Assembly (NCBI GenBank): GCA_020429915.1
Contig: JAGQKV010000012.1
Location: 65,737 to 129,736, forward strand
DNA length: 64,000 bases
Direction of reading: 5' to 3'
Origin: Candidatus Omnitrophota bacterium
GTDB lineage: Bacteria; Omnitrophota; Gorgyraeia; Zapsychrales; Zapsychraceae
Shown: piece by piece, positions 43,705 through 62,724 of the stretch
Layout: every line of letters starts with the position of its first letter
Position numbering within the stretch: position 1 is the first letter of the stretch
Made by a program: the position numbers and the translations under genes
Notes under the pieces: model-generated
Told to the model about the DNA's origin: nothing
Databases searched by the model: none
What the model saw: only the letters and a program-made list of their open reading frames with translations

Positions 43705-44649
43705 ATGCGTTCCAAGCTATATCTCACATTATTTGCCGCCCTTGCACTGGCCGGGTATCTCAGCCGATTCGGCTTCTGGTTCGATCTGACCACGCATTTT
43801 CAGCCGCAGTATCTGATCGGATTGTTGGCCTGCGCCGGATTCTGCGCCTGGCAACGGCGCTGGAGGACCATGGCCGTGGCTGTCATCTGCGCGGCGATCC
43901 CTTTAAGCCGGATCCTTCCTTTATATATGCCGCTCACCCGCACCGCCCATGCCGGCCCCGCATCCACGCTTTCCCTACTGCTGGTCAATATCAAGGCCGA
44001 GAACCGTCAGTTTGAGAAGCTGCGCGCCTACATCCGGGAGTCCGATCCGGACATTATCGCGCTGGAAGAGTTCAATGAACTTTGGCACAATGAACTTTCG
44101 CCGGTATTGAAGGATTACCCGTACACCATTCATGAATTCAGAGCAGACAATTTCGGCATCGGATTATACAGCCGTCTGCCGGTCGAGAATCTCAAGATCA
44201 AGCGCTTTAGCGATGTTCCCAGTATCTCAGGAGACTTGACCGTCAACGGCCGGCCGCTCACGGTCCTGGTGACACATCCCATCCCGCCGGTCCGTCCGAG
44301 CGCCTTCCGCTACCGCAACCGGCACTTCGCCAACATGGCGGCCGCCCGCGGGGAGTATCACGATAACCTTGTGCTCATCGGCGACTTGAACTCGTCGTCC
44401 TGGTCGTATTTCTTCCAGAAACTGGCCGCGGATATGGGCCTGCGCGACTCACGCGAGGGGTTCGGCCTGCAGTTTTCCTGGCCGACGATGACGGCCTTGC
44501 TGCTGACCACCATTGATCATGCCCTGGTCAGTGATAATATCGTTGTTAATGAAAGGCGTATCGGGAAGGACATCGGATCGGATCACTTTCCGGTGTATCT
44601 TGAGATCGGGGTCAGCGGTCCGCGGGCGGTTACTCCGTCAGCCAACTGA
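43705..44649 (+). CDS. Endonuclease/exonuclease/phosphatase (EEP) family membrane protein
   Basis: 2-3 N-terminal TM helices and EEP motifs (LLLVNIKAEN...LIGDLNSS...SDHFPV). Confidence 0.8.
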   Translation: MRSKLYLTLFAALALAGYLSRFGFWFDLTTHFQPQYLIGLLACAGFCAWQRRWRTMAVAVICAAIPLSRILPLYMPLTRTAHAGPASTLSLLLVNIKAENRQFEKLRAYIRESDPDIIALEEFNELWHNELSPVLKDYPYTIHEFRADNFGIGLYSRLPVENLKIKRFSDVPSISGDLTVNGRPLTVLVTHPIPPVRPSAFRYRNRHFANMAAARGEYHDNLVLIGDLNSSSWSYFFQKLAADMGLRDSREGFGLQFSWPTMTALLLTTIDHALVSDNIVVNERRIGKDIGSDHFPVYLEIGVSGPRAVTPSAN

Positions 44650-47600
44650 TCTGGTCCGCGGATTCCGCAGGCACAACCTCCGGCTCCGGCCCGCCGGCCA
44701 GTGAGTCGCCATTAATCCCGCCGCCGAGTATCAACGGCAGATTAAGAACCGGACTGATATTGATGATGACCGGCACGAAACCGTTTACCGGGACCGTCTG
44801 CAATTCCTGCAACTCCGCGGGCACGTTCATCTGAATCACATCCCCGCTGCTGTGCAATTCCATATTCCCCGCGTTGAGATCGATCCCACCGACCGGACGG
44901 CTCAGCACCGCACGGTCCGTGGACTGCTCACCCTGTTGCACGGCCGTCTCCTGTGCATCCGGCCGGACTCCGAGAATATTGCGCGCGTATTCCAGCTGAT
45001 TGGTAGGGATAATGATGGTCGTGTTGGCCTGAAGGTCTTCGGGTCGGCGAATACCGTTACGGTCCATGATCCGCTGGTAGAGGGGCCGGTTGAAAATGCC
45101 GTCCCATTCCGCCAACGGCGTGGGTGACCCGTCGGCCTGGATACCGTAAAAACGCTGCGCGATGAGTTCCAGACGGTCGCCCGGCTGCACACTATAAGCC
45201 ACCTCCAACCCGCCGGGTACTATCAGCGACACGTTCTGTGGAAGATAGTAAAAGCCGCGCACGGCATTGTAATCGGCGGGATCGGGAAGCGGATCAAGGT
45301 CGAGTTCACTCGCATTTGCACTGTGAATCTCCGGATAGGCAAAATAATTGTCGAAGTAAAGCTTCGCGATACCGCTGAGCGTGCCCATGGCGGCACCCCG
45401 ACGTGTGATAAACCCTTCCACGTCGCTGACGCCGGTGATGTGCACATCCGGCCGCGCCGAATAGTCCATCAACGGCTCGATCAGCGGGACAAGATCACGG
45501 AAGACATCCGGGGGAATGAGTATGGACGGTTCATCCAGATAGCGCGGCAACGCATTGAGCGGAGGCACCGGGCCCTGTTCGGTCACTAGGGGCTCACTGT
45601 CGTTCTCCGCCCCATCCAAGTCACCGCCGGGATTATGGCGCGAATAGATATACGGCGTTATCAACAACGCCGCCACCAACGTGATGATAAGCGTTGCCTC
45701 CGTCACGTCGGAGAAACCGGCACGCGTCACACCGGCTTCGGTCGCGGCAAGTTCAACCGCGGCCGCTTCCGATGCACCGGATTGCGCGGCAAAGACCGGG
45801 GCGTAAGGTTTTCCCCGTTTCTGCAGCGCCAGCACCTCGTCCAAAATGTCGGCAGCCATAGCCTTCAATTCCGCAGCCGACAGCGCCAACGCCGCATCCA
45901 TCAGGTCGGCATTGCTGTCCAGCAACCTGTTATTGAGATCAAAGTCATCGACGCCTAATCGTTGCGCGAAAAGATTGAGGATATTACCGGTGGCCTGTCC
46001 GTAGATCACGGCGTTCTGTCCGGCAAACAACGCGGCCAATCCGCTGTTCAGGGAAATGTGCAGTTCAATGACCTTGACCAAATCGGTGTAAGGCGCGTCT
46101 CCGTACGCGATGCTGGACAGATACGCCGTGGTTTCCTGGGCAATGCGGCGGCCGGCGCCGTAATAGCGGTTCTGCACTCCGTTAAGCTCGTCGCGCGTGT
46201 GCTGACGTTCATGGATCCCGGTGGAGGCGTGACGGCTGCGAAGGATAGCCTCAATCTGATCCGCCCCCGGAAAGCGCGGGTAATCCCGCTGCACTCCCCG
46301 GCGAATCAGCTCACTGAGCCGGTGAATCCCGCGCCCGCCGTAGGTGCGAAACGGCCTCTCAAACAGATGCGGCAGCACGTCGCTGTACGTTTCGCCGTCA
46401 ATTATATCCTTCAACACCACACCGAAGGTATCGCCGTTCCAGGTGAAACCCAAGGCCGCAATATCTTCGTCGACGCGGTCGATCCGCTGTCCCAGGTAAT
46501 AGATTTCCGGCAATGCCCCGCGGCGATTGCGCGGCCCGTCCGTATCGATCTCAATCGCGTCGATCCGGAAGGCCTGGCTCGACAGGATAGATACATTTTG
46601 CTGCGAGCCGTCGGAGAAATTCTGGGTCCGCTCCAACACTTCCAATTGAACGTACACCATCTGTTCCTTGAGAAACGGATTGTTGCGTAAATCACGGGCC
46701 AAATCTTCAATCAACGCCCGGTTGCGGCGTACATTGGCGCTGTAACCGCGCAATCCCTTGCCGATGAGCGACGGACTGAAGCTCCGTTGCAGCAACCGGG
46801 AAAAGATTTTCTCGACACTGGAATCGAGCAGACCCGCACCGCGACGGGTCAGCCGCAGCATGTCGGTCGTCGCGACCTCATGGGCCGAGGCCATCAGCAG
46901 TTGCGGCAGCACTTCCGAGAAAAAGATCATCGTCCGCAGCGACGGGTCCTTGGTCTCGGCCATGGCCTCGACCGCTGGCTGCATTCTGTCCAGATACTGA
47001 CGGGAGGTGACTTCGAGCGGCACGAAAATAGCTTGTTCGGGTTCGCGGCGATCGTCCCGCCGGGTACTCTCCCGCTCGAAACCGAAGGAAATGTCGCGCT
47101 CCCCGCTGGCCGCGTCTTCTCCCTGGGAATAGGCGGATGACGAATCCCCCACCCCAAACGTCCGCTTCGTTGACTCCCGTTCGCCCAACAGCTCGCGTGC
47201 GTGGACCATTATCTGCTCTTTGGTCCGCTCCCGTTCCCGAGCCGCCCGCGCTTCCTCTTCTTCGCGCTCGGTACGGGTACTTGTTCCGCCGGTCGTGCGC
47301 CTATCCGATTCAGGCACCTGAACGATGTATTGCGACCAATCGATCTCTTCGGTTTCCGCTGCCTGCAGCTTGACGCCAAGCTCGGGTGATATCGCGTCGA
47401 AAAGAGCGACGATCTCGTCGACCGTTTCCGGCGTGTATGTCCCGGCAAACTCCGCTTGTTCACGTAATTGCGGCCGGCCGTAGATAAATTCCAGAATGGC
47501 GGTCACCCGTTGGGGAAGATTGGCTTCGAAACGCAGGCTGCGCTTACCGGGCTCTTCAATATCCGCCAGCCGTTCCAATTGACGGATCAGGCCGGCCAAT

Positions 47601-49783
47601 GTCTGAATCCCCCGGTCCTGGCGGAGTTCGCGATAGTAGTCGCCGCGCGACCGTCGCGCGATTTCCTTCCACTCAGGAGCATGATCTTCTCCGAGATATT
47701 TCTGAGTACGCGGGCCGTTGTGAACGTCGACCTTATCGCGCATGATTTGAAGGATTTGAACCACTTGTTTGAGCAGCTGCGGATTGTTACGGACAAACGG
47801 ACTCGCTTCCCGCAAGCGGTCGGCGAGAATTTCGTCCAGCAGACTTCCGGAGCGCATCATTTCCCATGCCATGTTCAGCGAGTTATCGTACGTGCCGCGG
47901 AAGATCCCCAACAGGTCGACGGTCAGGACAGCCGCCTCACCGTCACGCCCCAACCCCAAAGTAAAAGGCGCTACCGTATTGACGGCCAACCGGATATCGG
48001 TCTGCCCCCAGCCACTGACGTCATCACCGTTGGAATCCAGGAAACTTTTCAGCGAGTCGAGCGCATGCCGGACCAGGGCCGCATACACTTCATCGTCGAG
48101 TTCGCGCAGCTGTCCCAGAATCTCGGTCAACAACTCACGGCGGCGGTTACCGTCGCGGGGGATGCTTTGCAACCGTCCGGCGAGCGCCTCAAACACGCGG
48201 CGCTGTTTGTAGCCGTATTTGTCGGTCCTGATCCGATAACCGGCCAGCGTATCCAGCAACGGTTTCAAGGCGGCCAGCTTCTCGGAACTGCGACCCGCCT
48301 CGCCCAGTTCTTCCAGCGATCGGCGCAGGGCCTGCGCAGACGCCCGCAGCCCCTCTTCACCGCCCGGCACGTTTAATTCACGTTCGGGAAATCCGATCCC
48401 AAAGACATAACCGCGGTCGTCATCTACCTCAATTTCAGTGCGTTCTTCCGAACCTTCCACCGCCACGGTCGCCTTACGAAACTGGCGATACCGGATACCG
48501 TCCATCACCACTTCATAACTGCCGAAATGGTACGTATCGTAAAAAGGCAGGACCGCACGGTCGCTCAGACGACCGACTCTGTCAAAGGCGATATCCTCTG
48601 CGCCGGCCGTCCCCCGCCCGCGCAGACCGGTGTTGACCGACAGAATCTTTCCCTGGGGCACGATCTGAGCTGCCACGCTCCCGGGTTCGATTTCCCTGAT
48701 TTGCTGCGGGAGTTTGGAATGGTTCACGCCTCCGGAGAAGTACTTCTTGGGGATAATCTCATCGAGCTGTGGATCGTATTCCTCCTTGATATAGCTGTAC
48801 ACCCCTTCTTTAAAGGCCGTCACGTATTGTTCGTAAATCTTCCGGTTAATCTCGCGGTCCGCTACGTCCACTCCGTCGACACGGTTCTTGTCGACATAGA
48901 CCCGGCTCAGGAAGCTCTCGCGCAGGTTCTTCTTGTACCACGTGGCCAGGATCATGGAATGGTAAATCTGCCGCAAGTTGGAGAATGTCCGGCCGTTGTT
49001 GACCTCGCGTTCGATCTCGGGAATAAGGATCTCCCGGACGATTTGGGAGGACACCTCGGACAAGACATTGGTGTCGCCTGGTTTTTCGGCGGAATGATGT
49101 TCCAGGGCGAGGTAATCCTCCTCCAACATGACTTTCAGCCGGCTGTTGACGACATACACCGTCTGTCCCTGCACGACCACATCGGCCGTCTCCGGAACGA
49201 TCCAGATCTTATTATAGGTGTTGACCGGGACGTCGGTGGTCCCGAACTCAGTCTGGGCCCGTTGATAAACACGGTCCCAAAACTTCTTTCCCAACTCATC
49301 TTCGGGATAGATCATGGAAGCCGTCAGCTGTTTGAGCAGATAGTCCTGCGCCAACAGATCACGCCCCATTTCCGTCCGGCCGAATTCATCCGGAATGATC
49401 CGGTCCCGCTCGAACGGCGACAGGTTGACCCACATCTTGTCTTCCGAGACCGTCAACGCAGCCAGGAAATACTTAATGAGGCGGGTTGACTCGCGCTGCA
49501 AGTCGACTCCGTCCAAATCCTGTTCACCGGTATCGATCAGAAAGTCAAACTGAAGAGGATTGTCCGCATCAATGGTCACCCCGCGTATGATGGCGGGATG
49601 AAAGTCGGGGGTGACATACAACATCGTACCCGGCTCGGGCAAATCAAGGACAGTCGCGGGCTGTGCCGCAAAGGAAGACCCCGGGACCAGTCCGGTATTG
49701 ACAGCCAAAACGCAGGCCATAAATGCCCGGAGGAAACGGCTCCAGACGGTCATGTTCGCATTGTTTCTATGCATAGTTGTCAT
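44630..49783 (-). CDS. Giant multidomain protein of unknown function (about 1700 aa) with a signal peptide, one late TM helix and a LysM-like C-terminal region
   Basis: Continuous 1730-codon ORF. A probable Met start at 49783 or 49753 precedes the SP-like RAFMACVLAVNTGLVPGSSFAAQPA. An E/R-rich low-complexity block lies in the middle. A TM helix appears at about aa 1370 (TLIITLVAALLITPYIY). The C-terminal region is LysM-like (YSVQPGDRLELIAQRFYG). Confidence 0.75.
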   Translation of the reverse strand: MTTMHRNNANMTVWSRFLRAFMACVLAVNTGLVPGSSFAAQPATVLDLPEPGTMLYVTPDFHPAIIRGVTIDADNPLQFDFLIDTGEQDLDGVDLQRESTRLIKYFLAALTVSEDKMWVNLSPFERDRIIPDEFGRTEMGRDLLAQDYLLKQLTASMIYPEDELGKKFWDRVYQRAQTEFGTTDVPVNTYNKIWIVPETADVVVQGQTVYVVNSRLKVMLEEDYLALEHHSAEKPGDTNVLSEVSSQIVREILIPEIEREVNNGRTFSNLRQIYHSMILATWYKKNLRESFLSRVYVDKNRVDGVDVADREINRKIYEQYVTAFKEGVYSYIKEEYDPQLDEIIPKKYFSGGVNHSKLPQQIREIEPGSVAAQIVPQGKILSVNTGLRGRGTAGAEDIAFDRVGRLSDRAVLPFYDTYHFGSYEVVMDGIRYRQFRKATVAVEGSEERTEIEVDDDRGYVFGIGFPERELNVPGGEEGLRASAQALRRSLEELGEAGRSSEKLAALKPLLDTLAGYRIRTDKYGYKQRRVFEALAGRLQSIPRDGNRRRELLTEILGQLRELDDEVYAALVRHALDSLKSFLDSNGDDVSGWGQTDIRLAVNTVAPFTLGLGRDGEAAVLTVDLLGIFRGTYDNSLNMAWEMMRSGSLLDEILADRLREASPFVRNNPQLLKQVVQILQIMRDKVDVHNGPRTQKYLGEDHAPEWKEIARRSRGDYYRELRQDRGIQTLAGLIRQLERLADIEEPGKRSLRFEANLPQRVTAILEFIYGRPQLREQAEFAGTYTPETVDEIVALFDAISPELGVKLQAAETEEIDWSQYIVQVPESDRRTTGGTSTRTEREEEEARAARERERTKEQIMVHARELLGERESTKRTFGVGDSSSAYSQGEDAASGERDISFGFERESTRRDDRREPEQAIFVPLEVTSRQYLDRMQPAVEAMAETKDPSLRTMIFFSEVLPQLLMASAHEVATTDMLRLTRRGAGLLDSSVEKIFSRLLQRSFSPSLIGKGLRGYSANVRRNRALIEDLARDLRNNPFLKEQMVYVQLEVLERTQNFSDGSQQNVSILSSQAFRIDAIEIDTDGPRNRRGALPEIYYLGQRIDRVDEDIAALGFTWNGDTFGVVLKDIIDGETYSDVLPHLFERPFRTYGGRGIHRLSELIRRGVQRDYPRFPGADQIEAILRSRHASTGIHERQHTRDELNGVQNRYYGAGRRIAQETTAYLSSIAYGDAPYTDLVKVIELHISLNSGLAALFAGQNAVIYGQATGNILNLFAQRLGVDDFDLNNRLLDSNADLMDAALALSAAELKAMAADILDEVLALQKRGKPYAPVFAAQSGASEAAAVELAATEAGVTRAGFSDVTEATLIITLVAALLITPYIYSRHNPGGDLDGAENDSEPLVTEQGPVPPLNALPRYLDEPSILIPPDVFRDLVPLIEPLMDYSARPDVHITGVSDVEGFITRRGAAMGTLSGIAKLYFDNYFAYPEIHSANASELDLDPLPDPADYNAVRGFYYLPQNVSLIVPGGLEVAYSVQPGDRLELIAQRFYGIQADGSPTPLAEWDGIFNRPLYQRIMDRNGIRRPEDLQANTTIIIPTNQLEYARNILGVRPDAQETAVQQGEQSTDRAVLSRPVGGIDLNAGNMELHSSGDVIQMNVPAELQELQTVPVNGFVPVIINISPVLNLPLILGGGINGDSLAGGPEPEVVPAESADQISWLTE

Positions 49784-50023
49784 CAGGACGTCTTGATTGG
49801 GGCTATATAGTTTAGCACACAACGGTTTGGGTCACCAGCGCCGCCTGCGGGCGCGCGACATCCTGTAAATATATGCTATGGATAACTTTATGCATCAATC
49901 ATAAAGATAGTTGAGTATGAACTGATGACGACCGACGATCCGCGCCGCCGCATCGCTATATATAATATCGAATTAATATTAATAAAAATAAGCTTCCGCG
50001 GCAAATATGTGCGGCTTAATAAA

Positions 50024-50077: not shown

Positions 50078-50150
<73 letters not shown>

Positions 50151-50256
50151 TATCTTTTTGGCGTACCGGCCGCTGACGAGCGCTCTGCGAGGACCTGGAT
50201 GACTTCGATGATTGCTCCCACAGCATTTTCGTATTCGGCCGTAACCGCCTCCTTTT

Positions 50257-50340
50257 GCTGGAGTGGTGAAATTGGTAGACGCACTGGATTCAAAATCCAG
50301 CGGGGGCGACCCCATGAGAGTTCGAGTCTCTCCTCCAGCA
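50257..50340 (+). tRNA. tRNA-Leu (anticodon CAA)
   Basis: 84 nt. Acceptor stem GCTGGAG/CTCCAGC with discriminator A. Anticodon loop TTCAAAA. Long variable arm. T-loop TTCGAGT. Confidence 0.9.
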
Positions 50341-50422
50341 TTACTCCCCCTTTCCTTTAATACCGCACGGCCATTGACCCTCCGGACATCTTAAGATACA
50401 CTTGAGAAAAAGGAGACCGCCC

Positions 50423-50956
50423 ATGAAAAATGTGATCCCGCTCCTCGTAGTGCTGTTCGTAGCCGCCACCGGCATCAACGCCGACGCTGAAACCAAGACC
50501 AAGCTGATCCACCTGCGTGACGGATCTTCACTGACCGGTAATGTGCTCTCCCTCAACCGGGGCGAGTACACCATCCAAACCAAGAATCTCGGTGTCATGA
50601 AAGTCCGCCAGGACGATATTGTCAGCATCTCGAACCCCGGCTTTGCGCCGCAAGAAGCCCAGGCAGCGGAACCGCTGATGCCCGGCCAGATGGCACCGCA
50701 TCTGACCAAATCCAACCTGGGACACCAAGTGCAGACACTGCAAAGCAGCATCATGGGCGATCCGGAACTGGTCGAGGACATTCAGGTGTTGATGAGCGAT
50801 CCGGAGATCGTCAAGATCATCCAGGACGAAACGTTTATGCAGAAAATCATGACGCTTGATATGGATTCTATCGAGAACGATCCGCGATACCGGGACCTCA
50901 TGTACAATCCCCGCATGCGGCGCTTCATTCAGAAACTCCAGGCGCGCGATCAATAG
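50423..50956 (+). CDS. Secreted hypothetical protein
   Basis: MKNVIPLLVVLFVAATGINA signal peptide. AGGAG RBS. The track start at 50402 lies upstream of the RBS. Confidence 0.6.
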   Translation: MKNVIPLLVVLFVAATGINADAETKTKLIHLRDGSSLTGNVLSLNRGEYTIQTKNLGVMKVRQDDIVSISNPGFAPQEAQAAEPLMPGQMAPHLTKSNLGHQVQTLQSSIMGDPELVEDIQVLMSDPEIVKIIQDETFMQKIMTLDMDSIENDPRYRDLMYNPRMRRFIQKLQARDQ

Positions 50957-50972: not shown

Positions 50973-52814
50973 TTAGTACGGGACACGCAGGTTCCACAGC
51001 TGCGGATTGCGTGGCAGCGTCGGCCGCTCCGCCGAATTGATCAGCGCGTCGTCGGGAAGGTCATTGAGGGGGACAGGCCGGCGGCTCGTCAAACCGAAAC
51101 GTTTGGCATTTAATATCAGATGCCGCGCCCCGAAAGTCTTGTATTCCTTATTCAAAGCCCCCGCCTCTTTTCGAATCATCACAAAGCTGTGCCGGTAGTC
51201 GCTGACAAAGTCCTGAATGAACTTGTCGGTAATCGCCTTGCGGCCGGCCAGAACCTCGACCTTGTCGCTGTTCTCCTGCCTCACCCTGAGTTGGCTTTTC
51301 TCGTTAAACATGGGCGACAAGAGCTTCAGAGCCTCCGGGTTGTCATTCTCCAGGGTAGAGAAATACGGAGTAATCTCCGCAAAACCGGCGGCACGCAGCG
51401 TCGAGAAGTATACTTCCCAATATTGCCGGTCATGCAGATCAACGATCTCTGAAGCATCGAATACACCAAACCCGCCCTCCGCCAATGACGTCAGGACGAA
51501 GTGAAAGAATTCGCGGCTGTAGAGTTTGCTGAGATCGTAATCCTTGACCCGGGGAAAGTCCATGTAAATAGCGTCATACAGCGTGTCGTTGTGACGCAGG
51601 TAGTGGTAAGCATCGGCGGCGATCGTTTTGACCCGCGGATCGGCGAGAGCGCCGCGATTGGCGTAACGCAGCACCGGGTCCTCTGACGCGACTTTGAGTA
51701 TCTGCCGGTCGATATCGACAAGGGTGACTTCTTTGACGTCGGGGTATTTTAAAATCTCGCGCAACAACAATCCGTCGCCGCCGCCGAGAATCAGCACCCG
51801 CCGGGGGACCCGGTTATTGTATATGACAGGGACATGCGCGAAATACTCGTGGTTGATATTCTCGGTATCGAGTCGGAACTGGAAAAAACCGTCCATAAAC
51901 AGCACGACCCCTTTAGGGAACTCCGGGTCCTTGTCGAATTTGCCGCTGTAAATCGCCCACAGGTCGTCGAAGACATCCTCCTCGGGCGGATAATACACCA
52001 GATCAATTTTTTGATAAGGTGAACTCAACCGGGTCACCGTGGGCCATTCTTTCATCGGCCGGAAGAGGTCCCGGATGCTTTCGGCGCTTTGGGCGTAGTA
52101 GTAATACTTCTGGAGAAAATATTGATTCAGACTCTTGGCCTGCCACAAACCGGCGCTCATGAGCAGCAGCACGACACTCACGGCACCGCGCCGCAGCCAG
52201 CCGCGCGGCAGATCGAGTTGGAGGTAAAGCGCGGCCAGAATATTGATTAATCCGACGATAAAGGCGATGGTGAGCAATTCAAATCGCGCCAACAAAACCA
52301 GCGGAAACAGGACTGCGCCGCACAGGGAGCCGAAATAATCGATACTCAGAATACGGTTGGTGATCCCGGGGCCCTTATCGTTAGTGGCCTGACCGATCCC
52401 AATCAAAAGCGGCAACTCGCACCCGGTCAAGAACCCGATCTTTACAACCGCGCCGAGGACCACCAGATAGAAGATCCACGCCATATCGAAAAAGTTGTTA
52501 TTGACCCAGATATACCGGACCACCATATGGGCCACGTGGATAACCGCCAGCGACAACCCGCCGATCAGACTCAACAGGATTTCCACGCGCACCAGGGCGG
52601 CGCGGCAGTCCTCGTCGCCGAACCAGTGCCGGTAATTTAGCGCGCCGAGCCCCATCGATCCGAGAAAGGCCCCCAGCCCCAGACTGTACCAGACCACCGT
52701 ATTGGCGGCATAGAACGATACGGTCTGCGCCAGCAACAATTCATATACAATGCTGCACGCCGCCAGCAGGAAGGTAATCGCGTAGAGTGACTTATTGCCG
52801 CCACGGAACTTCAT
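50973..52814 (-). CDS. speE: Membrane-embedded polyamine aminopropyltransferase (spermidine synthase-like): N-terminal multi-TM domain plus SpeE catalytic domain and a C-terminal extension
   Basis: About 7 TM helices over aa 1-220. Then the spermidine-synthase motif VLILGGGDGLLLREILKYPDVKEVTLVDID and D...DFP. Total 613 aa. Confidence 0.8.
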   Translation of the reverse strand: MKFRGGNKSLYAITFLLAACSIVYELLLAQTVSFYAANTVVWYSLGLGAFLGSMGLGALNYRHWFGDEDCRAALVRVEILLSLIGGLSLAVIHVAHMVVRYIWVNNNFFDMAWIFYLVVLGAVVKIGFLTGCELPLLIGIGQATNDKGPGITNRILSIDYFGSLCGAVLFPLVLLARFELLTIAFIVGLINILAALYLQLDLPRGWLRRGAVSVVLLLMSAGLWQAKSLNQYFLQKYYYYAQSAESIRDLFRPMKEWPTVTRLSSPYQKIDLVYYPPEEDVFDDLWAIYSGKFDKDPEFPKGVVLFMDGFFQFRLDTENINHEYFAHVPVIYNNRVPRRVLILGGGDGLLLREILKYPDVKEVTLVDIDRQILKVASEDPVLRYANRGALADPRVKTIAADAYHYLRHNDTLYDAIYMDFPRVKDYDLSKLYSREFFHFVLTSLAEGGFGVFDASEIVDLHDRQYWEVYFSTLRAAGFAEITPYFSTLENDNPEALKLLSPMFNEKSQLRVRQENSDKVEVLAGRKAITDKFIQDFVSDYRHSFVMIRKEAGALNKEYKTFGARHLILNAKRFGLTSRRPVPLNDLPDDALINSAERPTLPRNPQLWNLRVPY

Positions 52815-53174: not shown

Positions 53175-53876
53175 CTAAACTCCTTTATTGAGGTACAGAT
53201 CCACGCAAAACTCCTTGATTCCCGGCGTAAATATCAAACCGATCGCCATAACGATAAAAAGGGCGACTTGAAAATACAGTAACGGATAAAAACGCCTCGC
53301 CTCTTCCCTGTCCGGTTCCGTATCGAGATAGTTGGTCAGCAAGCCGGCGCAACTGTTCAATAACCCGGTTATAAACGCGGCCATCACCAAGCCGGTGACC
53401 GGATAGTAGATAAACGCGAACACCATTGTTCCGATGACCGCGCCGAAATAGCTGAAGCCGAGCACCTTGCTTTCCGCGTGCGGGACCTCGTCCTTCATCA
53501 GTTCCATCAGGATCGGCAGTTCCTTACCGGTGAGATATCCGACAAGCAGAATCAACCCGTGAGACAACACGGCAAACAACGGTCCGGAACCGAACAGACG
53601 GTCCAATCCGTACAGCCACAGCATCAGAAAACCGCCCGCGAAGGTCAGCCATATCTCGGTCCTGAGAAGCTGGCACCGCGGGTTTCGCAAGCCGCTTTCC
53701 ACGGACCGCGCGCCCAAACCCATGGCAAAAAGGTACAGACCGATCGTCACGCTGTAGCGCAGGACGGTATTACGCAAAAACAGACAGAGCGACTGCGCCA
53801 GCAACAACTCATAGCAGATGCTGCACAGGGAAACGACAACAGTAATGAAAAGTAAGAGTGTCTTGCGATCAGGCAT
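53175..53876 (-). CDS. Transmembrane-only paralog of the spermidine-synthase N-terminal membrane domain
   Basis: 233 aa and all TM. The N-terminus LLLFITVVVSLCSICYELLLAQSLCLF aligns with LYAITFLLAACSIVYELLLAQTVSFY of the 613-aa SpeE-like protein. No catalytic domain. Confidence 0.65.
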   Translation of the reverse strand: MPDRKTLLLFITVVVSLCSICYELLLAQSLCLFLRNTVLRYSVTIGLYLFAMGLGARSVESGLRNPRCQLLRTEIWLTFAGGFLMLWLYGLDRLFGSGPLFAVLSHGLILLVGYLTGKELPILMELMKDEVPHAESKVLGFSYFGAVIGTMVFAFIYYPVTGLVMAAFITGLLNSCAGLLTNYLDTEPDREEARRFYPLLYFQVALFIVMAIGLIFTPGIKEFCVDLYLNKGV

Positions 53877-54924
53877 AATCGACTTTCCTGCGGCGATCGA
53901 TAATATAAGCGATCAGATAACCAATGATTAATGTGCCGGCGACCAGACCGAGGTAAGCGGCCAGCGCCTGCGGAAAGGTCATGCGAAAATGAAAAAGGAC
54001 ATAATGGGTGGCGTGATACCCCGCGATCGTATTCAGCAGGAATAACCACAAAATAGCCCGCCCCATCTTGACCATGAACGACCGTTCACACAACCGCCGC
54101 CACTGCTCGCTCCGGCGAAACAGCGTTTCCAGCCCCCAAATCCAAACCATGCTCGTCCCGGTAATGCCCAGGATATAGAACGGCGACGCCTTAAACATAT
54201 CCCCTCCCCACAGCGCCGTGGTCACTACCGGATGATAGTCGCCGGTCGCCAGGGACACGGCGACCAGCGCCAGCCCCGCCGGCAGCAACGCGCCGAACAG
54301 CCTTCCGTTACCCGTCTCCAAGACATAACCGATGAGCAGTCCGGCGGTAAAAACGAACAACCACGGACACAACGGCCAAAAGTGTTCCCCCGTCTGGGAG
54401 CCGATGACAATCGCATACCAGTACTGGTCGGACAACTCTTGCCACGGAAACCGGTCGGACAGCGCCAGAGCCGCGCACCCCATGCCGAACGCCATTCCCA
54501 CACCGACCGCCCGCGGCAGCCAGCGGATGAGCGGAAACGTCATCATCATCGCCAGGGCGATAAACTGCAGGACATCCCATTCGTCGATGCCGTATATCCC
54601 CCAGCACATGTAGTTGATCAAAAATCCCAGCGACAACAACCCCAGCGCCCGCTTGGCGACAAATCCGAAACCGCTATTTTTGCGGACGGTAGCGATGTAA
54701 AACGTCACCCCCGCCAGCAACGGCACTTCGAACCCGAACACATGCAGACTGAAATAACCGAAGCAGGGAAACGGCCCGGCCATCTCGGGCCAACGCATTT
54801 CAAACCGGGTGAGATCAAGCCACATCCACACCCATTCATGCAGACCGATCAGATAGATGATGCCCAATCCCTTGAGAAATTCAATGCTGGTATAGCGACG
54901 ACTACTCATAACGCGGCAAAACAT
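53869..54924 (-). CDS. Acyltransferase-3 (AT3, OatA N-terminal-like) family integral membrane protein
   Basis: About 10 TM helices. N-terminal AT3 signature R..(I)EFLKGLGIIYLIGLH corresponds to the family pattern R..LDGLRG.A...V..H. Confidence 0.6.
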   Translation of the reverse strand: MFCRVMSSRRYTSIEFLKGLGIIYLIGLHEWVWMWLDLTRFEMRWPEMAGPFPCFGYFSLHVFGFEVPLLAGVTFYIATVRKNSGFGFVAKRALGLLSLGFLINYMCWGIYGIDEWDVLQFIALAMMMTFPLIRWLPRAVGVGMAFGMGCAALALSDRFPWQELSDQYWYAIVIGSQTGEHFWPLCPWLFVFTAGLLIGYVLETGNGRLFGALLPAGLALVAVSLATGDYHPVVTTALWGGDMFKASPFYILGITGTSMVWIWGLETLFRRSEQWRRLCERSFMVKMGRAILWLFLLNTIAGYHATHYVLFHFRMTFPQALAAYLGLVAGTLIIGYLIAYIIDRRRKVDYA

Positions 54925-56128
54925 CCTCGGTTAAGTAGCGCGCGATATGCCCGGCCATCAGCGCGTGCATGCGGCCGGAGTTGTGGCCGTCATCGGTGTA
55001 GTAGACCGGATCGCGGACATTGATTCTGTCATTATAAATCAAGTCGTTCAGATCCAGGACATGATATTGCTGTTTTTCCCAATGTTGCGCGAAGCGCAGA
55101 TACTGTTTCGGCTGCCCGGCCGCCTTCCGGACGAGGTCCTTGCCGGTGGGCAGAATCAGGATGACGGGGATAGCGCCTTCTGCACGGACCGCGCCGACGA
55201 ACCGGTCGATCACGACCGTGGCCACGCGGTAACCCTCGGAGTCGATATTAAAAATATTGTCTTTGAGGAACAACATATCCGGGTGCTGAGCCCCCGAGAG
55301 CTGATAACCGACCAACTTCAGATAGCGCACCATTGCCAGGTGATCCCATCCGCCGCTGCGGTACAACTGGTGATAATAGAAGTCATGTTCGCCGAGCCGG
55401 CGGATCGTGGCCGCGGGCTTATTCAACAGTAAGCGGTAATCCTCAAGCTGCTGAAAGGGGTTCTGCACCTCGGTGAGCTGTCCGTCCTGTTCCAAAAACC
55501 TCGGTTTGGTCAGCGGGAATTCTGTTTGGGGGGAATAAAACGGCCGGAAGACATTCAGATTGCGAAAGACATTCTCGCTGTTAAAGCCGAAGATGACGAT
55601 TCGCGGGTGATAGTCCCGCCCCTCATACCGGTAACGCCAATAGGCCTGATCCTGCGCGTACCCGCTGACCCCGAAATTAAGGACCTCCCACTCCGGACGC
55701 AGCCCTTCGAGTTGCGCCTGCCAGGTATCGGGATACGTTACCCCGTGCCCGAACGTAAAGGAATCACCGAAGGTGGCTACACGCAACCGGTCCGCAGCCG
55801 GCCGCGCATCAACGACCGCCGCAGCCGCCCTGAAGCCCTGCGTATTGCACCGGAAGCCGGTCTTGGTCGTCGCCGGGTTGGGCACCCAGCCCAACCGCGC
55901 GTGATAACGGATGTGACCTTCTTCGCCGGCGAGCATGCGGCGGATAATGTCCCGCTGGCCGTCGCTCAAGCGAGCTTCCGGCAATGGAGAATATTCGATC
56001 CCTTTCCACTTCTTTAATAATGACAGCGCTCCGGCGGCGGTCAGTTCGGCCACCAGAAATAATCCGAGAATCAGCAGGATAGAAAACAGGAAGTGGTTGA
56101 AACGGCGTTTTGCGGCTGGTTGTTGCAT
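54902..56128 (-). CDS. Membrane-anchored SGNH/GDSL hydrolase-family protein
   Basis: N-terminal TM anchor and block-I motif ATFGDSFTFGHG. Overlaps the AT3 gene by 23 nt. Confidence 0.7.
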   Translation of the reverse strand: MQQPAAKRRFNHFLFSILLILGLFLVAELTAAGALSLLKKWKGIEYSPLPEARLSDGQRDIIRRMLAGEEGHIRYHARLGWVPNPATTKTGFRCNTQGFRAAAAVVDARPAADRLRVATFGDSFTFGHGVTYPDTWQAQLEGLRPEWEVLNFGVSGYAQDQAYWRYRYEGRDYHPRIVIFGFNSENVFRNLNVFRPFYSPQTEFPLTKPRFLEQDGQLTEVQNPFQQLEDYRLLLNKPAATIRRLGEHDFYYHQLYRSGGWDHLAMVRYLKLVGYQLSGAQHPDMLFLKDNIFNIDSEGYRVATVVIDRFVGAVRAEGAIPVILILPTGKDLVRKAAGQPKQYLRFAQHWEKQQYHVLDLNDLIYNDRINVRDPVYYTDDGHNSGRMHALMAGHIARYLTEDVLPRYE

Positions 56129-58530: not shown

Positions 58531-59439
58531 TTAACCGGCCGCGGCAGCCGCTTTTTCGGACACGCGGACATTCATCGGCGGCGCCGATCCGTCCTTGTCT
58601 TTTCCCATGTAGAGCGTCACATGGGGGAACGGGATCTCGATATCCCGCTCGTCAAAGCGTTTCTTGAGTCGCTTATTGAATTCACGGCCGACCGCCCACT
58701 GCTTGATAGGCTTGGTCATTGTCCGCGCCTTGATTATCACGGCGGAATTGTCGAACTTGTCCAGCCCGAGGATCTCGATCGGGGCCAAGATGTCCTTTTT
58801 GAATTCCGGATCCTGACGCAGCTCTTCATCGACCGCCTTAATGACCTCAATCACCTCATCGACGTCTTCACGGTAAGCGACACCGATATCGAATACGTAA
58901 CGGGAATACTCTTTCGTCATATTGGTCACCACCCCGATCTGTCCGTTGCGGACGTAATGGACGTTGCCGGCGAGGTCGCGCAGGATGACCATGCGCAGGG
59001 TGACCTTTTCCACCAGGCCGCCTTTGTCGGCGATATTGACCACGTCGCCGACCCGGATTTGATCTTCCAAGAGAATGAAGAAACCGCTGATCACGTCTTC
59101 AACCAGTTTCTGTGCCCCGAAACCGACCGCCAATCCGACAACCCCGGCCGTGGCCAGGATCGGACCGATGTCGATGCCGAGCTCCTTGAGAATCATCATA
59201 CCGGCCATAACGAAAATCCCGATTTTCAGAACATAGCGGACAATCGAACTCAGGGTATCGGTCCTTTTTTGCAATTCGGCATTATCGGCTTCCTTCTTGC
59301 TGATCCATTGGATCAATTTCGCGGACAGCAATTCCGCCGCCTTGAGCCCGATCACCATCAGGATCATTATCAGGACGATCTGGAGACCGCTGGTGATCAG
59401 CCACTCACCGACGGCCTGTAAATACTTTTGTGCATCCAT
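58531..59439 (-). CDS. Mechanosensitive ion channel, MscS family
   Basis: TM3-beta domain signature GVVGLAVGFGAQKLVEDVISGFFILLEDQIRVGDVV...IPN-like. Confidence 0.85.
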   Translation of the reverse strand: MDAQKYLQAVGEWLITSGLQIVLIMILMVIGLKAAELLSAKLIQWISKKEADNAELQKRTDTLSSIVRYVLKIGIFVMAGMMILKELGIDIGPILATAGVVGLAVGFGAQKLVEDVISGFFILLEDQIRVGDVVNIADKGGLVEKVTLRMVILRDLAGNVHYVRNGQIGVVTNMTKEYSRYVFDIGVAYREDVDEVIEVIKAVDEELRQDPEFKKDILAPIEILGLDKFDNSAVIIKARTMTKPIKQWAVGREFNKRLKKRFDERDIEIPFPHVTLYMGKDKDGSAPPMNVRVSEKAAAAAG

Positions 59440-59530: not shown

Positions 59531-61039
59531 TTACGGCTTCGGCCACACGCGGAATAATTGGCGGGGATAGCGGCCCGATTGCCAGCAGCTCTCCTGCCAA
59601 AATTCGTAAGGCCGAACCCCCACCGAATCCAGCCGGTAACCCTCCGTCATCATCGCAGCGAAGCGGCCCTGCGGATCATAATTATACAGACCATGTTCGG
59701 TTACGTAAACCGGGATTCCGCTGTTCAGCAGTCCGTCAAGCTCCCGGCGGAAGGCGGCGTGCGCCTCTTCATCGATGCGATACTGATCATGAAACCGGGA
59801 AAGCAGATTCAGATTGCTGTAGTAACGAAAGAACAGCGAATCGTCCACGGTGATGATGCGCGCATCCGGCGGGGCGAGCCGTGCCACCCAGCGAACGTAT
59901 TCCGGAATGGTCGCCTGCCGGTGCCGGGTCGTCAGGACCGGTTCGACCATACACACCATCCCGACCGCCATGACCACGGCCAGGAGCATGGCCAAAATAC
60001 GTCTGAACCGCCCGGCCGCACAATTATGGGAAAAGAAGCAGGCCATCAGGATGCACAGCGGCGGATGCAGGATGGTCAAAAATCGCGGGACCAGCGTGTA
60101 CAGCCGGCTGTACAACAGCACCGGGAAAAGCAGCCACAGCATCAAAAATAAATACGCCGGCCCGCCGCGCTGCTTCGACAATTTCCATCCCCCGATAAAG
60201 ATCAGCATGATCCCCACCGGAGTAAATGTATAAATGATGTGATAGAGGATATTCAGCAACGGCTTGAACAACAGCCCGATGGAAGCATGCGGAATCACCG
60301 ATGCCTCCTTATACTTCACGAATTGGGCCAAATAGGCCGCCCGTTCACTGCCGATGAGGTACGGCAGATAAAAGATGCTCATCGCCGCTGCCGCGACGGA
60401 ACCGAACACCAAGAAAGTCCGCAAGCGGTCCCGCGTGCTGACGGTCCACAACAAAAAGGCCAGCGGCACCGCCATCAGCACCAGATTCTGCAACCGGGCC
60501 GCCCCCAGAAACCCGATGAACGCCGCCGCGACGACCAAATCCCTTCCCCGCCCGGAATCCCGAAAACGCAACAGAAAATTAATCCCGGTCAGTAAGAAAA
60601 AGAGTGCCGGCGTATGACTCAATCCGTAAGTGGAAACCGCCAGAAATATGGGGGTCACCGATAAGAAAAATGCCGCGAAAAACGCGGTGTCGCGGTCAAT
60701 GAGGCGCCGGGTTACCTGATATAGCAACGGTACGCAAGCAGCTCCCATCACGACACTCATGAAGTTAACGGCCAGCACCGGGTCATGCACGCCGACGATC
60801 TTACCCAACAGGACAAAGATTCCGCCGCACACAATGGTGAGCGGATAACCCGATCCGAAAGAGTAGGACAATTGCAGGGTGGTGACGAGCTGCTCGGCCT
60901 TTAATGCCAGATTCAGGGTATCGACACTGTAGGGGCCGATACTGATCCAGAGTAACCGCGGCACAAAACTGACCACGAACAGTAGTGTAGCGACAACGCC
61001 CGCCGGGATCTGCCGCCGTGAGTGTGATTCAGACGTCAC
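59531..61039 (-). CDS. GT-C fold membrane glycosyltransferase-like protein (ArnT/PMT-like)
   Basis: 502 aa, about 12 TM helices in the N-terminal two-thirds plus a C-terminal soluble domain. Fold-level call only. Confidence 0.5.
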   Translation of the reverse strand: MTSESHSRRQIPAGVVATLLFVVSFVPRLLWISIGPYSVDTLNLALKAEQLVTTLQLSYSFGSGYPLTIVCGGIFVLLGKIVGVHDPVLAVNFMSVVMGAACVPLLYQVTRRLIDRDTAFFAAFFLSVTPIFLAVSTYGLSHTPALFFLLTGINFLLRFRDSGRGRDLVVAAAFIGFLGAARLQNLVLMAVPLAFLLWTVSTRDRLRTFLVFGSVAAAAMSIFYLPYLIGSERAAYLAQFVKYKEASVIPHASIGLLFKPLLNILYHIIYTFTPVGIMLIFIGGWKLSKQRGGPAYLFLMLWLLFPVLLYSRLYTLVPRFLTILHPPLCILMACFFSHNCAAGRFRRILAMLLAVVMAVGMVCMVEPVLTTRHRQATIPEYVRWVARLAPPDARIITVDDSLFFRYYSNLNLLSRFHDQYRIDEEAHAAFRRELDGLLNSGIPVYVTEHGLYNYDPQGRFAAMMTEGYRLDSVGVRPYEFWQESCWQSGRYPRQLFRVWPKP

Positions 61040-61638
61040 GATTTGATAATCTCCACGGGGTTGTTAAAAAGATTCGCATTGGGAATCAATACAGTCCGGT
61101 TATCACTCTCCAAGGTGGTGTAACGCAGGTCGACGCGGCGCACGGTCCCGTCGTACCCGGAGACCTTGATATGCGATCCGATGCGAAACGGCTGGTACAC
61201 CAGGACAAGCACGCCGGCCAGGACGTTGGACAGCGCATCTTTCAGGGCAAATCCCAGAGCGAAACCGGTCAGGCCCAGCCCCGCGACCATAGCCGCGACA
61301 TCAATACCCATTGTCCCCAATCCGGCAATCAGTCCGACAACGATCAGCACCATTTTCACAATGCGCCCCAACAGATAAAAAACATCCTGCTGAATCCGCG
61401 ATTTCGTGGCCAGCGTCAGAATTATCTTTTCAATGACGATGGCTATCGCCCAGATAATCAAACAGGCCGCCACTCCGGCCAGAATGCGGGCCGGTGCGGT
61501 AATGAACAGCGATGCAACGGGCGCGGCGGTTTCGACGAACACGGTAACCTCCTCGATTGTGATGTCTTTTTTCTTTCCCGGACGCGTGGAGAAAGAAATA
61601 TTTAATGGTCCGATCACCGGATACGTTAACCGAAACAT
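61036..61638 (-). CDS. Small MscS-family mechanosensitive channel
   Basis: GLGLTGFALGFALKDALSNVLAGVLVLVYQPFRIGSHIKVSGYDGTVRRVDLRYTTLESDNRTVLIPNANL MscS signature. Confidence 0.8.
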   Translation of the reverse strand: MFRLTYPVIGPLNISFSTRPGKKKDITIEEVTVFVETAAPVASLFITAPARILAGVAACLIIWAIAIVIEKIILTLATKSRIQQDVFYLLGRIVKMVLIVVGLIAGLGTMGIDVAAMVAGLGLTGFALGFALKDALSNVLAGVLVLVYQPFRIGSHIKVSGYDGTVRRVDLRYTTLESDNRTVLIPNANLFNNPVEIIKS

Positions 61639-61677: not shown

Positions 61678-62724
61678 TCAGGAATGTCGGAGTTGGCCGC
61701 AGGCACTGTTGATATCTTTGCCGCGCGGCGTGCGGATCGTGGCGTGAACACCGAACTCCGTCAAACGGTCACGGAAACGGAGCATCTCGTCCCGGGCCGG
61801 TGTCTGATGATCGAACTCCGAAACCGGATTGTAGGGAATGAGATTCAACTTGCAGATCAATCCGTGAAACGCCTTTTTCAGCGCCTGAGCGGCCTGCTCG
61901 GTGCAGGTGACATCCTTGATAAGGATATATTCGAAGGTGATTTGCCGGCGATAGCTTTTTTGATAGGTCCGGCAGGCCTCAATCAGATCGTTAAACGGAT
62001 ACTTCTTATTGACCGGCATCAGGACATTGCGCGACTCATTGTCGTAGCCGTGCAGGGAAATCGCGAGTTCAATCTGAATCCCTTCCCGTCCCATTTCAAG
62101 AATGCGGGGAATGACACCGCAGGTGGATACGGTGATGCGCCGTGCGCCGATATTCACACCGACCGGATCATTAATCAGCCGGATAGCCTTCATCAGATTT
62201 TCGTAATTGTCGAGCGGTTCGCCGATACCCATAAAAACGATATGCGACAACGGCCGGGGATGCGACTTGGCTTCTTCCTTGACCTGCAGCACCTGCGTGA
62301 TAATCTCTCCGCAGCTCAAATTACGGTTCCAGCCGCCGATCCCGCTGGCACAAAACCGGCAGCCGAACTTGCATCCGGCCTGAGTGGAGATGCAGGCCGT
62401 CGTGCGGGTCTTGGTGGGGATCAGGACCGTCTCCACCTTCTCATCATCGTGCAGGGCAAACAGGAACTTGGTAGTGCCGTCGGCGGACACTTCCTTGCGG
62501 ATCTGCTTATGCGGATGCAACGCAAAATCTTTTTCCAACCGCTCACGCAACGGTTTTGAGATATTGCCCATGTCGGCAAAACTCTGCGCGCCTTTGTGGT
62601 AGATCCATTCGGCGACCTGACGGGCGCGGTAAGACTTCTCGCCGATCGTGGCCATGTATTCTTGAAGTTCCGTAAGGGAGAGATCGCGGATATCGTTGGT
62701 AGACGGTGCCGGCGTCATGATCAC
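61678..62724 (-). CDS. rlmN: 23S rRNA/tRNA adenine-C2 methyltransferase RlmN (radical SAM)
   Basis: STQAGCKFGCRFCASG cluster motif and RlmN N-terminal domain. Confidence 0.9.
   Translation of the reverse strand: MIMTPAPSTNDIRDLSLTELQEYMATIGEKSYRARQVAEWIYHKGAQSFADMGNISKPLRERLEKDFALHPHKQIRKEVSADGTTKFLFALHDDEKVETVLIPTKTRTTACISTQAGCKFGCRFCASGIGGWNRNLSCGEIITQVLQVKEEAKSHPRPLSHIVFMGIGEPLDNYENLMKAIRLINDPVGVNIGARRITVSTCGVIPRILEMGREGIQIELAISLHGYDNESRNVLMPVNKKYPFNDLIEACRTYQKSYRRQITFEYILIKDVTCTEQAAQALKKAFHGLICKLNLIPYNPVSEFDHQTPARDEMLRFRDRLTEFGVHATIRTPRGKDINSACGQLRHS

Follow-up and report, generated by a model that had tools for sequence, protein, structure and literature searches.

A stand-alone membrane paralogue as the putative non-catalytic subunit of a SpeD-associated, spermidine synthase-like enzyme

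Introduction

Why would a bacterium keep, beside the gene of a membrane-anchored enzyme, a second gene that encodes the membrane domain of that enzyme without its catalytic domain? The question is raised by a stretch of 64,000 nucleotides from a Candidatus Omnitrophota bacterium (GenBank assembly GCA_020429915.1, contig JAGQKV010000012.1, positions 65,737 to 129,736 of the forward strand), which we refer to as the window. Six minus-strand genes of the window, tightly spaced or overlapping, encode a B12-binding radical S-adenosylmethionine (SAM) protein, an SGNH/GDSL-like protein, an HGSNAT_cat-like protein, a small membrane protein that we call S, a SAM decarboxylase of the SpeD type and the enzyme itself, called F, in which seven transmembrane (TM) helices precede a domain resembling the spermidine synthase SpeE (Table 1). 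The first-pass annotation described S as a duplicate of the membrane domain of F lacking the catalytic part, and proposed that it forms a hetero-oligomeric membrane platform, or an acceptor-binding or transport subunit, for the aminopropyltransferase (APT). One detail of that account needs correcting, in that the gene for the 117-residue SpeD sits between the S and F genes.

S is homologous to the membrane domain of F

BLASTP aligned residues 11–179 of S with residues 13–196 of F at 32% identity over 184 residues (83.6 bits, E = 8e-23), a stretch that includes the CSIxYELLLAQ helix common to both proteins. When S was compared with residues 1–230 of F, the real pair scored 85.1 bits, as against 14.6 ± 2.2 bits (maximum 21.9) for 300 residue shuffles of S and 13.1 bits for the reversed S sequence, so the match is not one of generic hydrophobicity. 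Profile–profile alignment with hhalign of the S family (95 sequences) and the F family (117 sequences) returned a probability of 100% and an E-value of 2.7e-55 over 224 columns, with S residues 3–229 lying on F residues 5–238, which covers all seven helices and the juxtamembrane helix. The NCBIfam model NF002956 (PRK03612), which describes the membrane-bound polyamine aminopropyltransferase, matched S at E = 9.7e-32 over profile positions 18–231 of 522, corresponding to the membrane part only, and the membrane motifs CSxxYELxLAQ, GxLTGxELPLL and DYxG are common to S, F and the PRK03612 family. Among the residues that S has in common with F are Glu23, Glu74, the Glu119-x-Pro121 pair, Tyr143 and Asn174.

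The catalytic domain is confined to F, where the Spermine_synth family PF01564 was found at residues 319–457. S gave no match to PF01564 or to any other Pfam family at E ≤ 0.1, and its polypeptide ends after TM7 and a short helix. Both parts of the first-pass description, the homology and the missing catalytic domain, thus stand, and at the level of sequence S is confirmed as a genuine and strongly conserved duplicate of the F membrane domain.

Conservation, distribution and origin of the S–SpeD–F cassette

A word search of 5.8 billion proteins retrieved 101 relatives of S, all of 154–268 residues, most of which are unnamed or called "spermidine synthase" according to one source. An S profile run against 1.84 billion cluster representatives matched 6987 proteins at E ≤ 1e-3, of which 603 reached E ≤ 1e-30, and approximately 190 stand-alone relatives of similar length were found across many phyla. 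Alignments of the S family contain 15–18 invariant columns and the motifs CSxxYELLLAQ, NTVLRYSVTIGLY, GxLTGxE(L/I)PLL, DYxGA and GLxxxAFxxGxLN. Among 38 genomes, the mean pairwise identity of S was 45.8%, compared with 38.3% in the membrane domain and 47.2% in the catalytic domain of F, and in 95% of the 703 genome pairs S was more conserved than the F membrane domain. By this measure, S is the more tightly constrained of the two membrane modules.

Scanning one genome per species gave 61 loci (numbered with an L below) from at least 10 phylum-level groups. Represented among them are Omnitrophota, Gammaproteobacteria (including the cultured HTCC2080 and a complete Luminiphilus genome), Legionellaceae, Binatia, Terriglobia, Thermoanaerobaculia, Gemmatimonadota, Bdellovibrionota, metagenome-assembled genomes (MAGs) labelled Planctomycetota, Elusimicrobia and Desulfobacterota. 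The S–SpeD–F cassette recurs in Omnitrophota, Gammaproteobacteria, Binatia, Acidobacteriota, Gemmatimonadota, Bdellovibrionota and other groups. Calling open reading frames (ORFs) and searching them with phmmer showed a stand-alone S in 54 of the 61 loci, and F adjoins S in 50 of the 52 that could be assessed. The SpeD gene separates S from F in approximately 42 loci, F follows S directly in approximately eight, and the order in L014 is F–S–SpeD. Six loci of Desulfobacterota have a single TM+APT protein only, and L061 has a SpeD–TM–APT fusion. In the window, the stop codon of the upstream HGSNAT-like gene overlaps the start codon of S by 8 nucleotides, the S-to-SpeD and SpeD-to-F junctions each consist of TAG, three nucleotides and a start codon, and a ribosome-binding site precedes the starts at the S, SpeD and F junctions.

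A neighbour-joining tree of 114 membrane modules placed the S clade cleanly apart from the F clade, with matching groupings inside the two, and the single-module proteins of Desulfobacterota fell on the S side. Because the clades are separate and their groupings correspond, S and the membrane domain of F are best described as paralogues that descend from one old duplication and were inherited together thereafter.

A wider conserved neighbourhood was also considered and rejected, as the recurrent neighbours beyond S–SpeD–F are either housekeeping genes or specific to a lineage, namely an AT3/HGSNAT-like protein in Omnitrophota and in the MAGs labelled Planctomycetota and, in 12 loci, an NF037959 protein. 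Two loci (L008:7298-9169 and L019:1473-3866) have a further TM+APT paralogue, of divergent sequence, beside the cassette.

A residue signature retained by S and lost from its partner

Many positions are kept in both clades, namely (in S numbering) Cys18, Ser19, Tyr22, Glu23, Gln28, Asn36, Tyr41, Ser42, Gly46, Gly53, Gly55, Glu74, Gly81, Gly113, Gly117, Glu119, Pro121, Tyr143, Gly145, Phe153 and Asn174. Three others, Arg40, His106 and Gly162 of S, distinguish the classes of membrane module (Table 2). The F protein of the window carries Trp42, Leu120 and Glu179 at these positions.

Table 2 Residues found in six classes of membrane module at the positions of Arg40, His106 and Gly162 of S.
Module class	Position 40	Position 106	Position 162
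Stand-alone S proteins	Arg 179/190	His 172/190 (Tyr 17)	Gly 183/190
First module of tandem proteins	Arg 14/14	Tyr 10, His 1	Gly 14/14
Single-module TM+APT enzymes	Arg 22/25	His 19/25	Gly 24/25
SpeD-fused membrane-only modules	Arg 11/11	His 10/11	Asn 5, Ser 3
F proteins with an S partner	Trp 99/118	Phe or Leu 100/118	Glu, Ser or Asp 100/118
Second module of tandem proteins	Ala, Gly or Ser	Gln or Ser	Gly 9/14

This pattern would be most simply explained if the ancestral enzyme possessed one module with the Arg/His/Gly signature and if, after the duplication, S retained the signature while the module of F lost it. SpeE enzymes are dimers or tetramers, and the ancestral single-module enzyme may for that reason have associated with itself. 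Since the F proteins partnered by S have lost the signature, it is hard to reconcile these data with an F membrane domain that works alone.

Natural fusions of the cassette components

Fusions of three kinds were found among the best profile hits. Ten proteins of 718–764 residues combine two membrane modules with a catalytic domain, in the order S-like six-TM module, F-like seven-TM module and APT domain. The first module of these tandem proteins has six helices and ends near residue 185, and the second has seven. One of them comes from MAGs of Bdellovibrionales, a group that also has the split form.

SpeD takes part in fusions as well. Proteins of 357–363 residues (P0335, P0338, P0341, P0349 and P0354) carry SpeD at the N-terminus of a membrane-only module, and one such fusion is a complete gene on a 212-kb contig (L067:5001-7771), where the next gene, with a 4-nucleotide overlap, encodes a 563-residue TM+APT protein. 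This architecture would represent a second way to build a non-catalytic membrane subunit. Triple fusions of SpeD, a seven-TM module and an APT domain also exist (762–772 residues).

The genes around two 13-TM tandem enzymes (P0257 and P0344; L069:786-5561 and L070:3270-8152) were also inspected. Both enzymes are flanked by two conserved genes, for a single-anchor protein upstream and for a polytopic membrane protein of 334–372 residues downstream, which matches the HGSNAT-like protein of the window only weakly (E = 0.045). Directly downstream of each enzyme is a protein of ~290 residues with an N-terminal export signal (a Tat-like RREFF motif in L069 and a Sec-like signal in L070), and these two exported proteins have no detectable similarity to each other. 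In the comparison of the HGSNAT-like protein of the window with the polytopic proteins beside the SpeD-fused and tandem systems, all matches were weak (E = 0.045 and 0.11).

Enzyme features of SpeD and F

SpeD scored 121.6 bits on TIGR03330 (cut-off 75.65), and its translation contains an AESH...HTWPE motif with the predicted internal Glu-Ser site of self-processing. From these features SpeD is predicted to supply decarboxylated SAM (dcSAM). F, which a Candidatus Omnitrophica MAG also encodes with 100% identity, consists of a seven-TM region (residues ~5–238) and a SpeE-like domain (residues ~255–500). Gln312, His322, Glu323, Gly344, Gly346, Asp347, Asp369, Asp401 and Asp419 are invariant in its family. 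Alignment to the Thermus SpeE showed that F conserves the GGGDG motif, which is of the dcSAM type, together with the Gln, Tyr-His-Glu and Asp cofactor residues of SpeE. The catalytic domain of F matched SpeE structures with TM-scores, normalised to the target, of 0.65–0.77, and a sequence search of solved structures with the membrane domain gave no match.

The substrate loop is different. F and its family have D-F-P-x-x-x-D-Y (Asp419-Phe-Pro421) where the canonical SpeE has D-S-x-D-P, a loop whose second Asp binds putrescine in SpeE structures. The aminopropyl acceptor of F is probably not putrescine. F also scores well under the curated cut-offs of all aminopropyltransferase equivalog models, with 92 bits on TIGR00417 against a cut-off of 249.55. 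On NF002956, which has a whole-protein cut-off of 472 bits, S (110 bits) and F (285.3 bits) both remain under the threshold, and F matches both parts of the profile (E = 7.5e-85), while NF037959 matches only the catalytic region of F (E = 7.5e-4, under the cut-off). Judged by these profiles, F groups with PRK03612-like proteins rather than with NF037959.

Predicted fold and topology of S and F

The AlphaFold2 (AF2) model of S (pLDDT 90, pTM 0.87) and that of F (pLDDT 93, pTM 0.90) each show seven long helices, in F the membrane helices, followed by a short helix. The best matches of the S model in the PDB were nearly all transporters of the major facilitator superfamily (MFS) or MFS-like transporters, including PepT1/2, VMAT1/2, VGLUT2, NorA and OCTN2. 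Most of these matches had query-normalised TM-scores of 0.5–0.57 over ~190–216 columns, which is roughly one half of a transporter, with Foldseek E-values of 0.03–0.3 that are not significant.

The distribution of positive charge along the sequence was consistent in the two families. Counts of Lys plus Arg per segment were 1.1–3.6 at the N-terminus and in loops 2–3, 4–5 and 6–7, compared with 0.02–0.5 in loops 1–2, 3–4 and 5–6. This positive-inside bias, together with the fusion of SpeD to the N-terminus in other lineages, suggests that the N-terminus is cytoplasmic. With a cytoplasmic N-terminus and seven spans, S would have its C-terminus on the periplasmic side, and the catalytic domain of F would lie there too.

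A two-subunit model and its alternatives

We consider it probable that the SpeD-fed aminopropyltransferase is made of two proteins, a putative S–F complex in which S serves as the second membrane subunit and has no catalytic role. The hetero-oligomeric platform or transport subunit suggested at first pass gains comparative support from the co-inheritance and congruent trees of S and F, the operon junctions, the natural fusions, the asymmetry of the signature and the predicted fold resembling one half of an MFS transporter. In the arrangement that we propose, the seven-TM modules of S and F, each resembling an MFS half of six helices with one extra helix, would pair 1:1 into a pseudo-symmetric transporter-like unit, of which S would be the half that retains the functional Arg40/His106/Gly162 signature. 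The N-termini of both proteins would be cytoplasmic, and the catalytic domain of F would be periplasmic, opposite SpeD. As the catalytic domain would lie on that side, the S–F unit would most likely hand a cationic substrate through the membrane to it. The best candidate for the cargo is dcSAM produced by SpeD, a dication that would suit the invariant glutamates, although the unit might instead carry the amine acceptor or the product.

The most specific version of this model is a tentative one, to which we attach less than an even chance. It holds that S and F form a split MFS-like conduit that moves dcSAM made by cytoplasmic SpeD across the inner membrane, and that the periplasmic domain of F aminopropylates a component of the envelope. 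The neighbouring genes for an HGSNAT-like acyltransferase and an SGNH-like protein would be compatible with the modification of an envelope component.

Several observations weigh against the two-subunit model or its periplasmic version. The resemblance to MFS transporters can be suggestive only, because the Foldseek E-values are not significant, and S has no Pfam MFS match; by inspection, the consensus of its loop 2–3, GAxxAEGRxxxxPVxxLL, lacks the MFS motif A (GxLaDrxGrk). Helix counting and charge bias are the sole grounds for putting the catalytic domain of F in the periplasm, TM7 of F is followed by a pair of conserved lysines (QYFLKKYYYY), and we know of no periplasmic dcSAM-dependent enzyme in bacteria. 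On the chromosome of a member of Thermoanaerobaculia (L029), S and SpeD occur with no F within 6 kb, and L041 contains a fragment of S alone. The divergence of S and F is correlated (r = 0.83), but such a correlation would be expected for any two genes of one genome, and for this reason we do not use it as evidence of interaction.

The main rival on mechanism is an enzyme that faces the cytoplasm. If the catalytic domain of F were cytoplasmic, the S and F modules would not transport dcSAM but would bind or present the acceptor, or export the aminopropylated product, and S would still be the partner of F. The acceptor would then be embedded in the membrane or imported, for example a lipid head group, a polyprenyl-linked glycan or an external amine. 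As dcSAM and SpeD are cytoplasmic, this is the simplest arrangement, and it would accommodate the lysine pair after TM7 of F. The HGSNAT-like, SGNH-like and B12 radical SAM neighbours would suit the tailoring of a lipid or glycan, and Glu23, Glu74 and Glu119, invariant in both modules, would suit an amine as cargo. The helix count, however, is at odds with a cytoplasmic domain. Seven long helices are present in the AF2 models of both S and F, loop 6–7 is placed inside by its charge bias (Lys plus Arg of 3.6) so that TM7 should lead out, the 6 + 7 helices of the tandem proteins leave the parity unchanged, and the SpeD–7TM–APT fusions would need an even number of spans, which none of the models shows. 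On balance we regard a cytoplasmic catalytic domain as rather doubtful.

The idea that S acts alone, for instance as a homodimer, appears less likely still. S would then be a small transporter of a polyamine-like product or precursor, tied to F by membership in the operon and not by a complex. Half-size transporters often homodimerise, S retains the full signature of the single-module enzymes, and in L029 no F adjoins the S and SpeD genes. However, what is joined in the natural tandem proteins is one S-like and one F-like module rather than two S-like modules, the loss of the signature from S-partnered F proteins would be hard to explain if the membrane domain of F functioned alone, and F is the neighbour of S in nearly all of the assessable loci. 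We hold such an independent transporter to be unlikely.

That S arose when the F gene was duplicated in tandem, lost the catalytic half and is now decaying, or that it is a functionless artefact of gene calling, could be argued from its being a truncated paralogue of a neighbouring gene with no Pfam domain, but this explanation is refuted by the conservation of S and effectively excluded, given the ~190 relatives of the same length across phyla with their invariant residues, the higher conservation of S than of the membrane domain of F, the intact reading frame with its ribosome-binding site and overlap with the upstream gene, and the confident AF2 model.

Gene cluster and neighbouring genes in the window

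Table 1 Coordinates of the cluster genes and of the S-homologous segment of F (positions of the window).
Feature	Position	Strand	Evidence or remark
B12-binding radical SAM protein, 534 aa	56185..57789	minus	PF04055 + PF02310; first gene of the cluster, accessory
SGNH/GDSL-like protein, 408 aa, N-terminal membrane anchor	54902..56128	minus	PF13472 E 1.4e-5, under curated cut-off; accessory
Polytopic HGSNAT_cat (transmembrane acyltransferase-like) protein, 351 aa	53869..54924	minus	PF07786 E 3.9e-11
S, 233-aa stand-alone 7-TM protein	53175..53876	minus	Paralogue of F membrane domain, without catalytic domain
SpeD, class 1b S-adenosylmethionine decarboxylase, 117 aa	52818..53171	minus	PF02675 E 1.6e-33
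F, 613 aa, 7-TM domain + SpeE-like domain + conserved C-terminal extension	50973..52814	minus	PF01564, profiles, AF2
F membrane domain (residues 1-238), segment homologous to S	52101..52814	minus	BLASTP, profile-profile alignment

The genes upstream of S have counterparts in some of the other loci. Homologues of the HGSNAT-like protein lie directly upstream of S in L001, L007, L012, L020, L024, L028 and L035, a homologue of the SGNH/GDSL-like protein occupies the equivalent position in L001, and homologues of the B12 radical SAM protein lie near the cassette in L007 and L010. The genes for RlmN and AccA are found upstream of the cluster (61678..63677 of the window, minus strand) and likewise in L001 (L001:3629-5639), a 57%-identical Omnitrophota locus.

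At ~1.7 kb upstream of the cluster is a gene for a polytopic protein of 502 residues matching PMT_2 (59531..61039, minus strand), an ArnT-like GT-C glycosyltransferase of a kind that acts on extracytoplasmic acceptors. It is flanked by two genes for MscS-type mechanosensitive channels (58531..59439 and 61036..61638, minus strand). L001 contains neither the B12 radical SAM gene nor this MscS/GT-C block, and the accessory genes thus vary among close relatives.

On the other side, the 3' end of the cluster is followed by a convergent ORF of 184 residues (50402..50956) with a weak match to the STI1/HOP DP domain and, just past it, by genes for tRNA-Leu(CAA) (50256..50341) and tRNA-Ala(GGC) (50078..50150) on the plus strand. 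Downstream of the tRNA genes lies an ORF of 1730 residues (44630..49822, minus strand), the sole family match of which is a weak LysM hit at about residues 1543–1606. A search of the window for a gene of the NF037959 type found none.

Discussion

Membrane-fused aminopropyltransferase families have been named before, and the description "7TM transporter-like" is already published. The closest relatives are the PRK03612/NF002956 proteins, which combine several TM helices with a SpeE domain; S matches their membrane part and F both parts. The differences are that S has no catalytic domain, that F lacks the Arg40/His106/Gly162 signature kept by the single-module members, and that F has Asp-Phe-Pro in the substrate loop. 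We found no assigned role for the membrane domain of the PRK03612 family in the literature searched.

The fused MFS/spermidine synthase (SpdSyn)-like proteins of NF037959 similarly join a membrane domain to a SpeE-like domain and cluster with class 1b S-adenosylmethionine decarboxylase (AdoMetDC). According to the papers that cite it, the work of Li et al. 2019 (Biochem J 476:2579) ascribes to such proteins a role outside spermidine synthesis; membrane-SpdSyn-like fusions clustered with AdoMetDC are reported to make no spermidine (PMC12803844), and an unknown aminopropyl acceptor has been proposed for them (PMC12803844, PMC11237479). In 10 of our loci, from several phyla, a NF037959-type protein of ~690 residues is encoded directly upstream of S on the same strand, and in two more it lies downstream on the opposite strand (L023:3971-6007, L026:3688-5907, L017, L029–L034, L039, L046 and L065). 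It has ~12 hydrophobic segments and a SpeE-like C-terminal domain (NF037959 match at E = 5e-18), and its nucleotide-binding motif, GLGIGT, lacks the acidic residue of GGGDG in F. In L029, the place of F is taken by a convergent ORF of ~223 residues that resembles the C-terminal part of a NF037959-type protein (L029:5938-8015). The possibility that S is one half of the NF037959 membrane domain was ruled out, as hhalign gave a probability of 0.4% for the S family against the L023 member.

A similar architecture, with a seven-TM domain followed by a SpeE-fold domain, is found in the fungal N-terminal histidine methyltransferase NHMT, which resides in the endoplasmic reticulum (ER) and acts on proteins of the secretory pathway (PMC10349129). 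Its catalytic domain presumably faces the ER lumen, given this location and its secreted substrates, and its authors raise the supply of cofactor to the ER compartment as a possible limitation. The enzyme uses SAM and has Ile322 at the acidic position of GxG(D/E)G, whereas F has GGGDG and an adjacent SpeD, and the report on NHMT does not describe a stand-alone membrane paralogue, unlike the situation in the S–F cassette. In plants, the GoSAMT proteins of the MFS are putative importers of SAM into the Golgi lumen (bioRxiv 10.1101/2021.07.06.451061). By analogy, NHMT and GoSAMT may serve as precedents for the supply of SAM to a compartment of extracytoplasmic type.

MFS transporters, which are built from two six-helix halves, offer a further comparison, in that the S model aligns over approximately one half and the tandem relatives have 6 + 7 helices. 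S differs from them in its seventh helix, the putative halves are on separate polypeptides of which one is fused to an enzyme, and no MFS signal is present at the level of sequence. SpeD2–SpeE2 of Pseudomonas aeruginosa (PA4773–PA4774) also place a class 1b AdoMetDC beside an atypical aminopropyltransferase with a link to the cell envelope. We rejected this pair as an analogue, because PA4774, a protein of 349 residues that was functionally identified as a thermospermine synthase, is approximately as long as a catalytic domain alone; the system has no membrane-domain paralogue.

The literature searched contained no description of the stand-alone S paralogue, the S–SpeD–F cassette, the series of fusions or the asymmetry of the signature, and no paper that identifies the substrate of the AdoMetDC-paired membrane-SpdSyn-like proteins.

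In thousands of bacterial genomes, an AdoMet decarboxylase is paired with a spermidine synthase-like protein that carries a membrane domain. For a widespread subgroup of these, our findings make the testable point that the enzyme would be a two-gene membrane unit, in which the non-catalytic subunit is the better conserved and keeps the residues characteristic of single-module enzymes. How the parts are ordered and oriented is fixed by the natural fusions, which put SpeD at the N-terminal, cytoplasmic end, and from the number of helices catalysis is predicted to take place across the membrane from SpeD. Because the cassette is present in marine Gammaproteobacteria that are in culture (HTCC2080 and Luminiphilus), it is open to genetic and biochemical work. 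Should S and F indeed form a conduit to a periplasmic catalytic domain, F would be the first case in bacteria of an enzyme that draws on a SAM-derived cofactor in the periplasm, and the reported "polyamine-independent role" of AdoMet decarboxylase would gain a concrete explanation. The comparison of S and F would also illustrate how a transporter-like domain that presumably paired with itself can diverge, after duplication, into an asymmetric pair.

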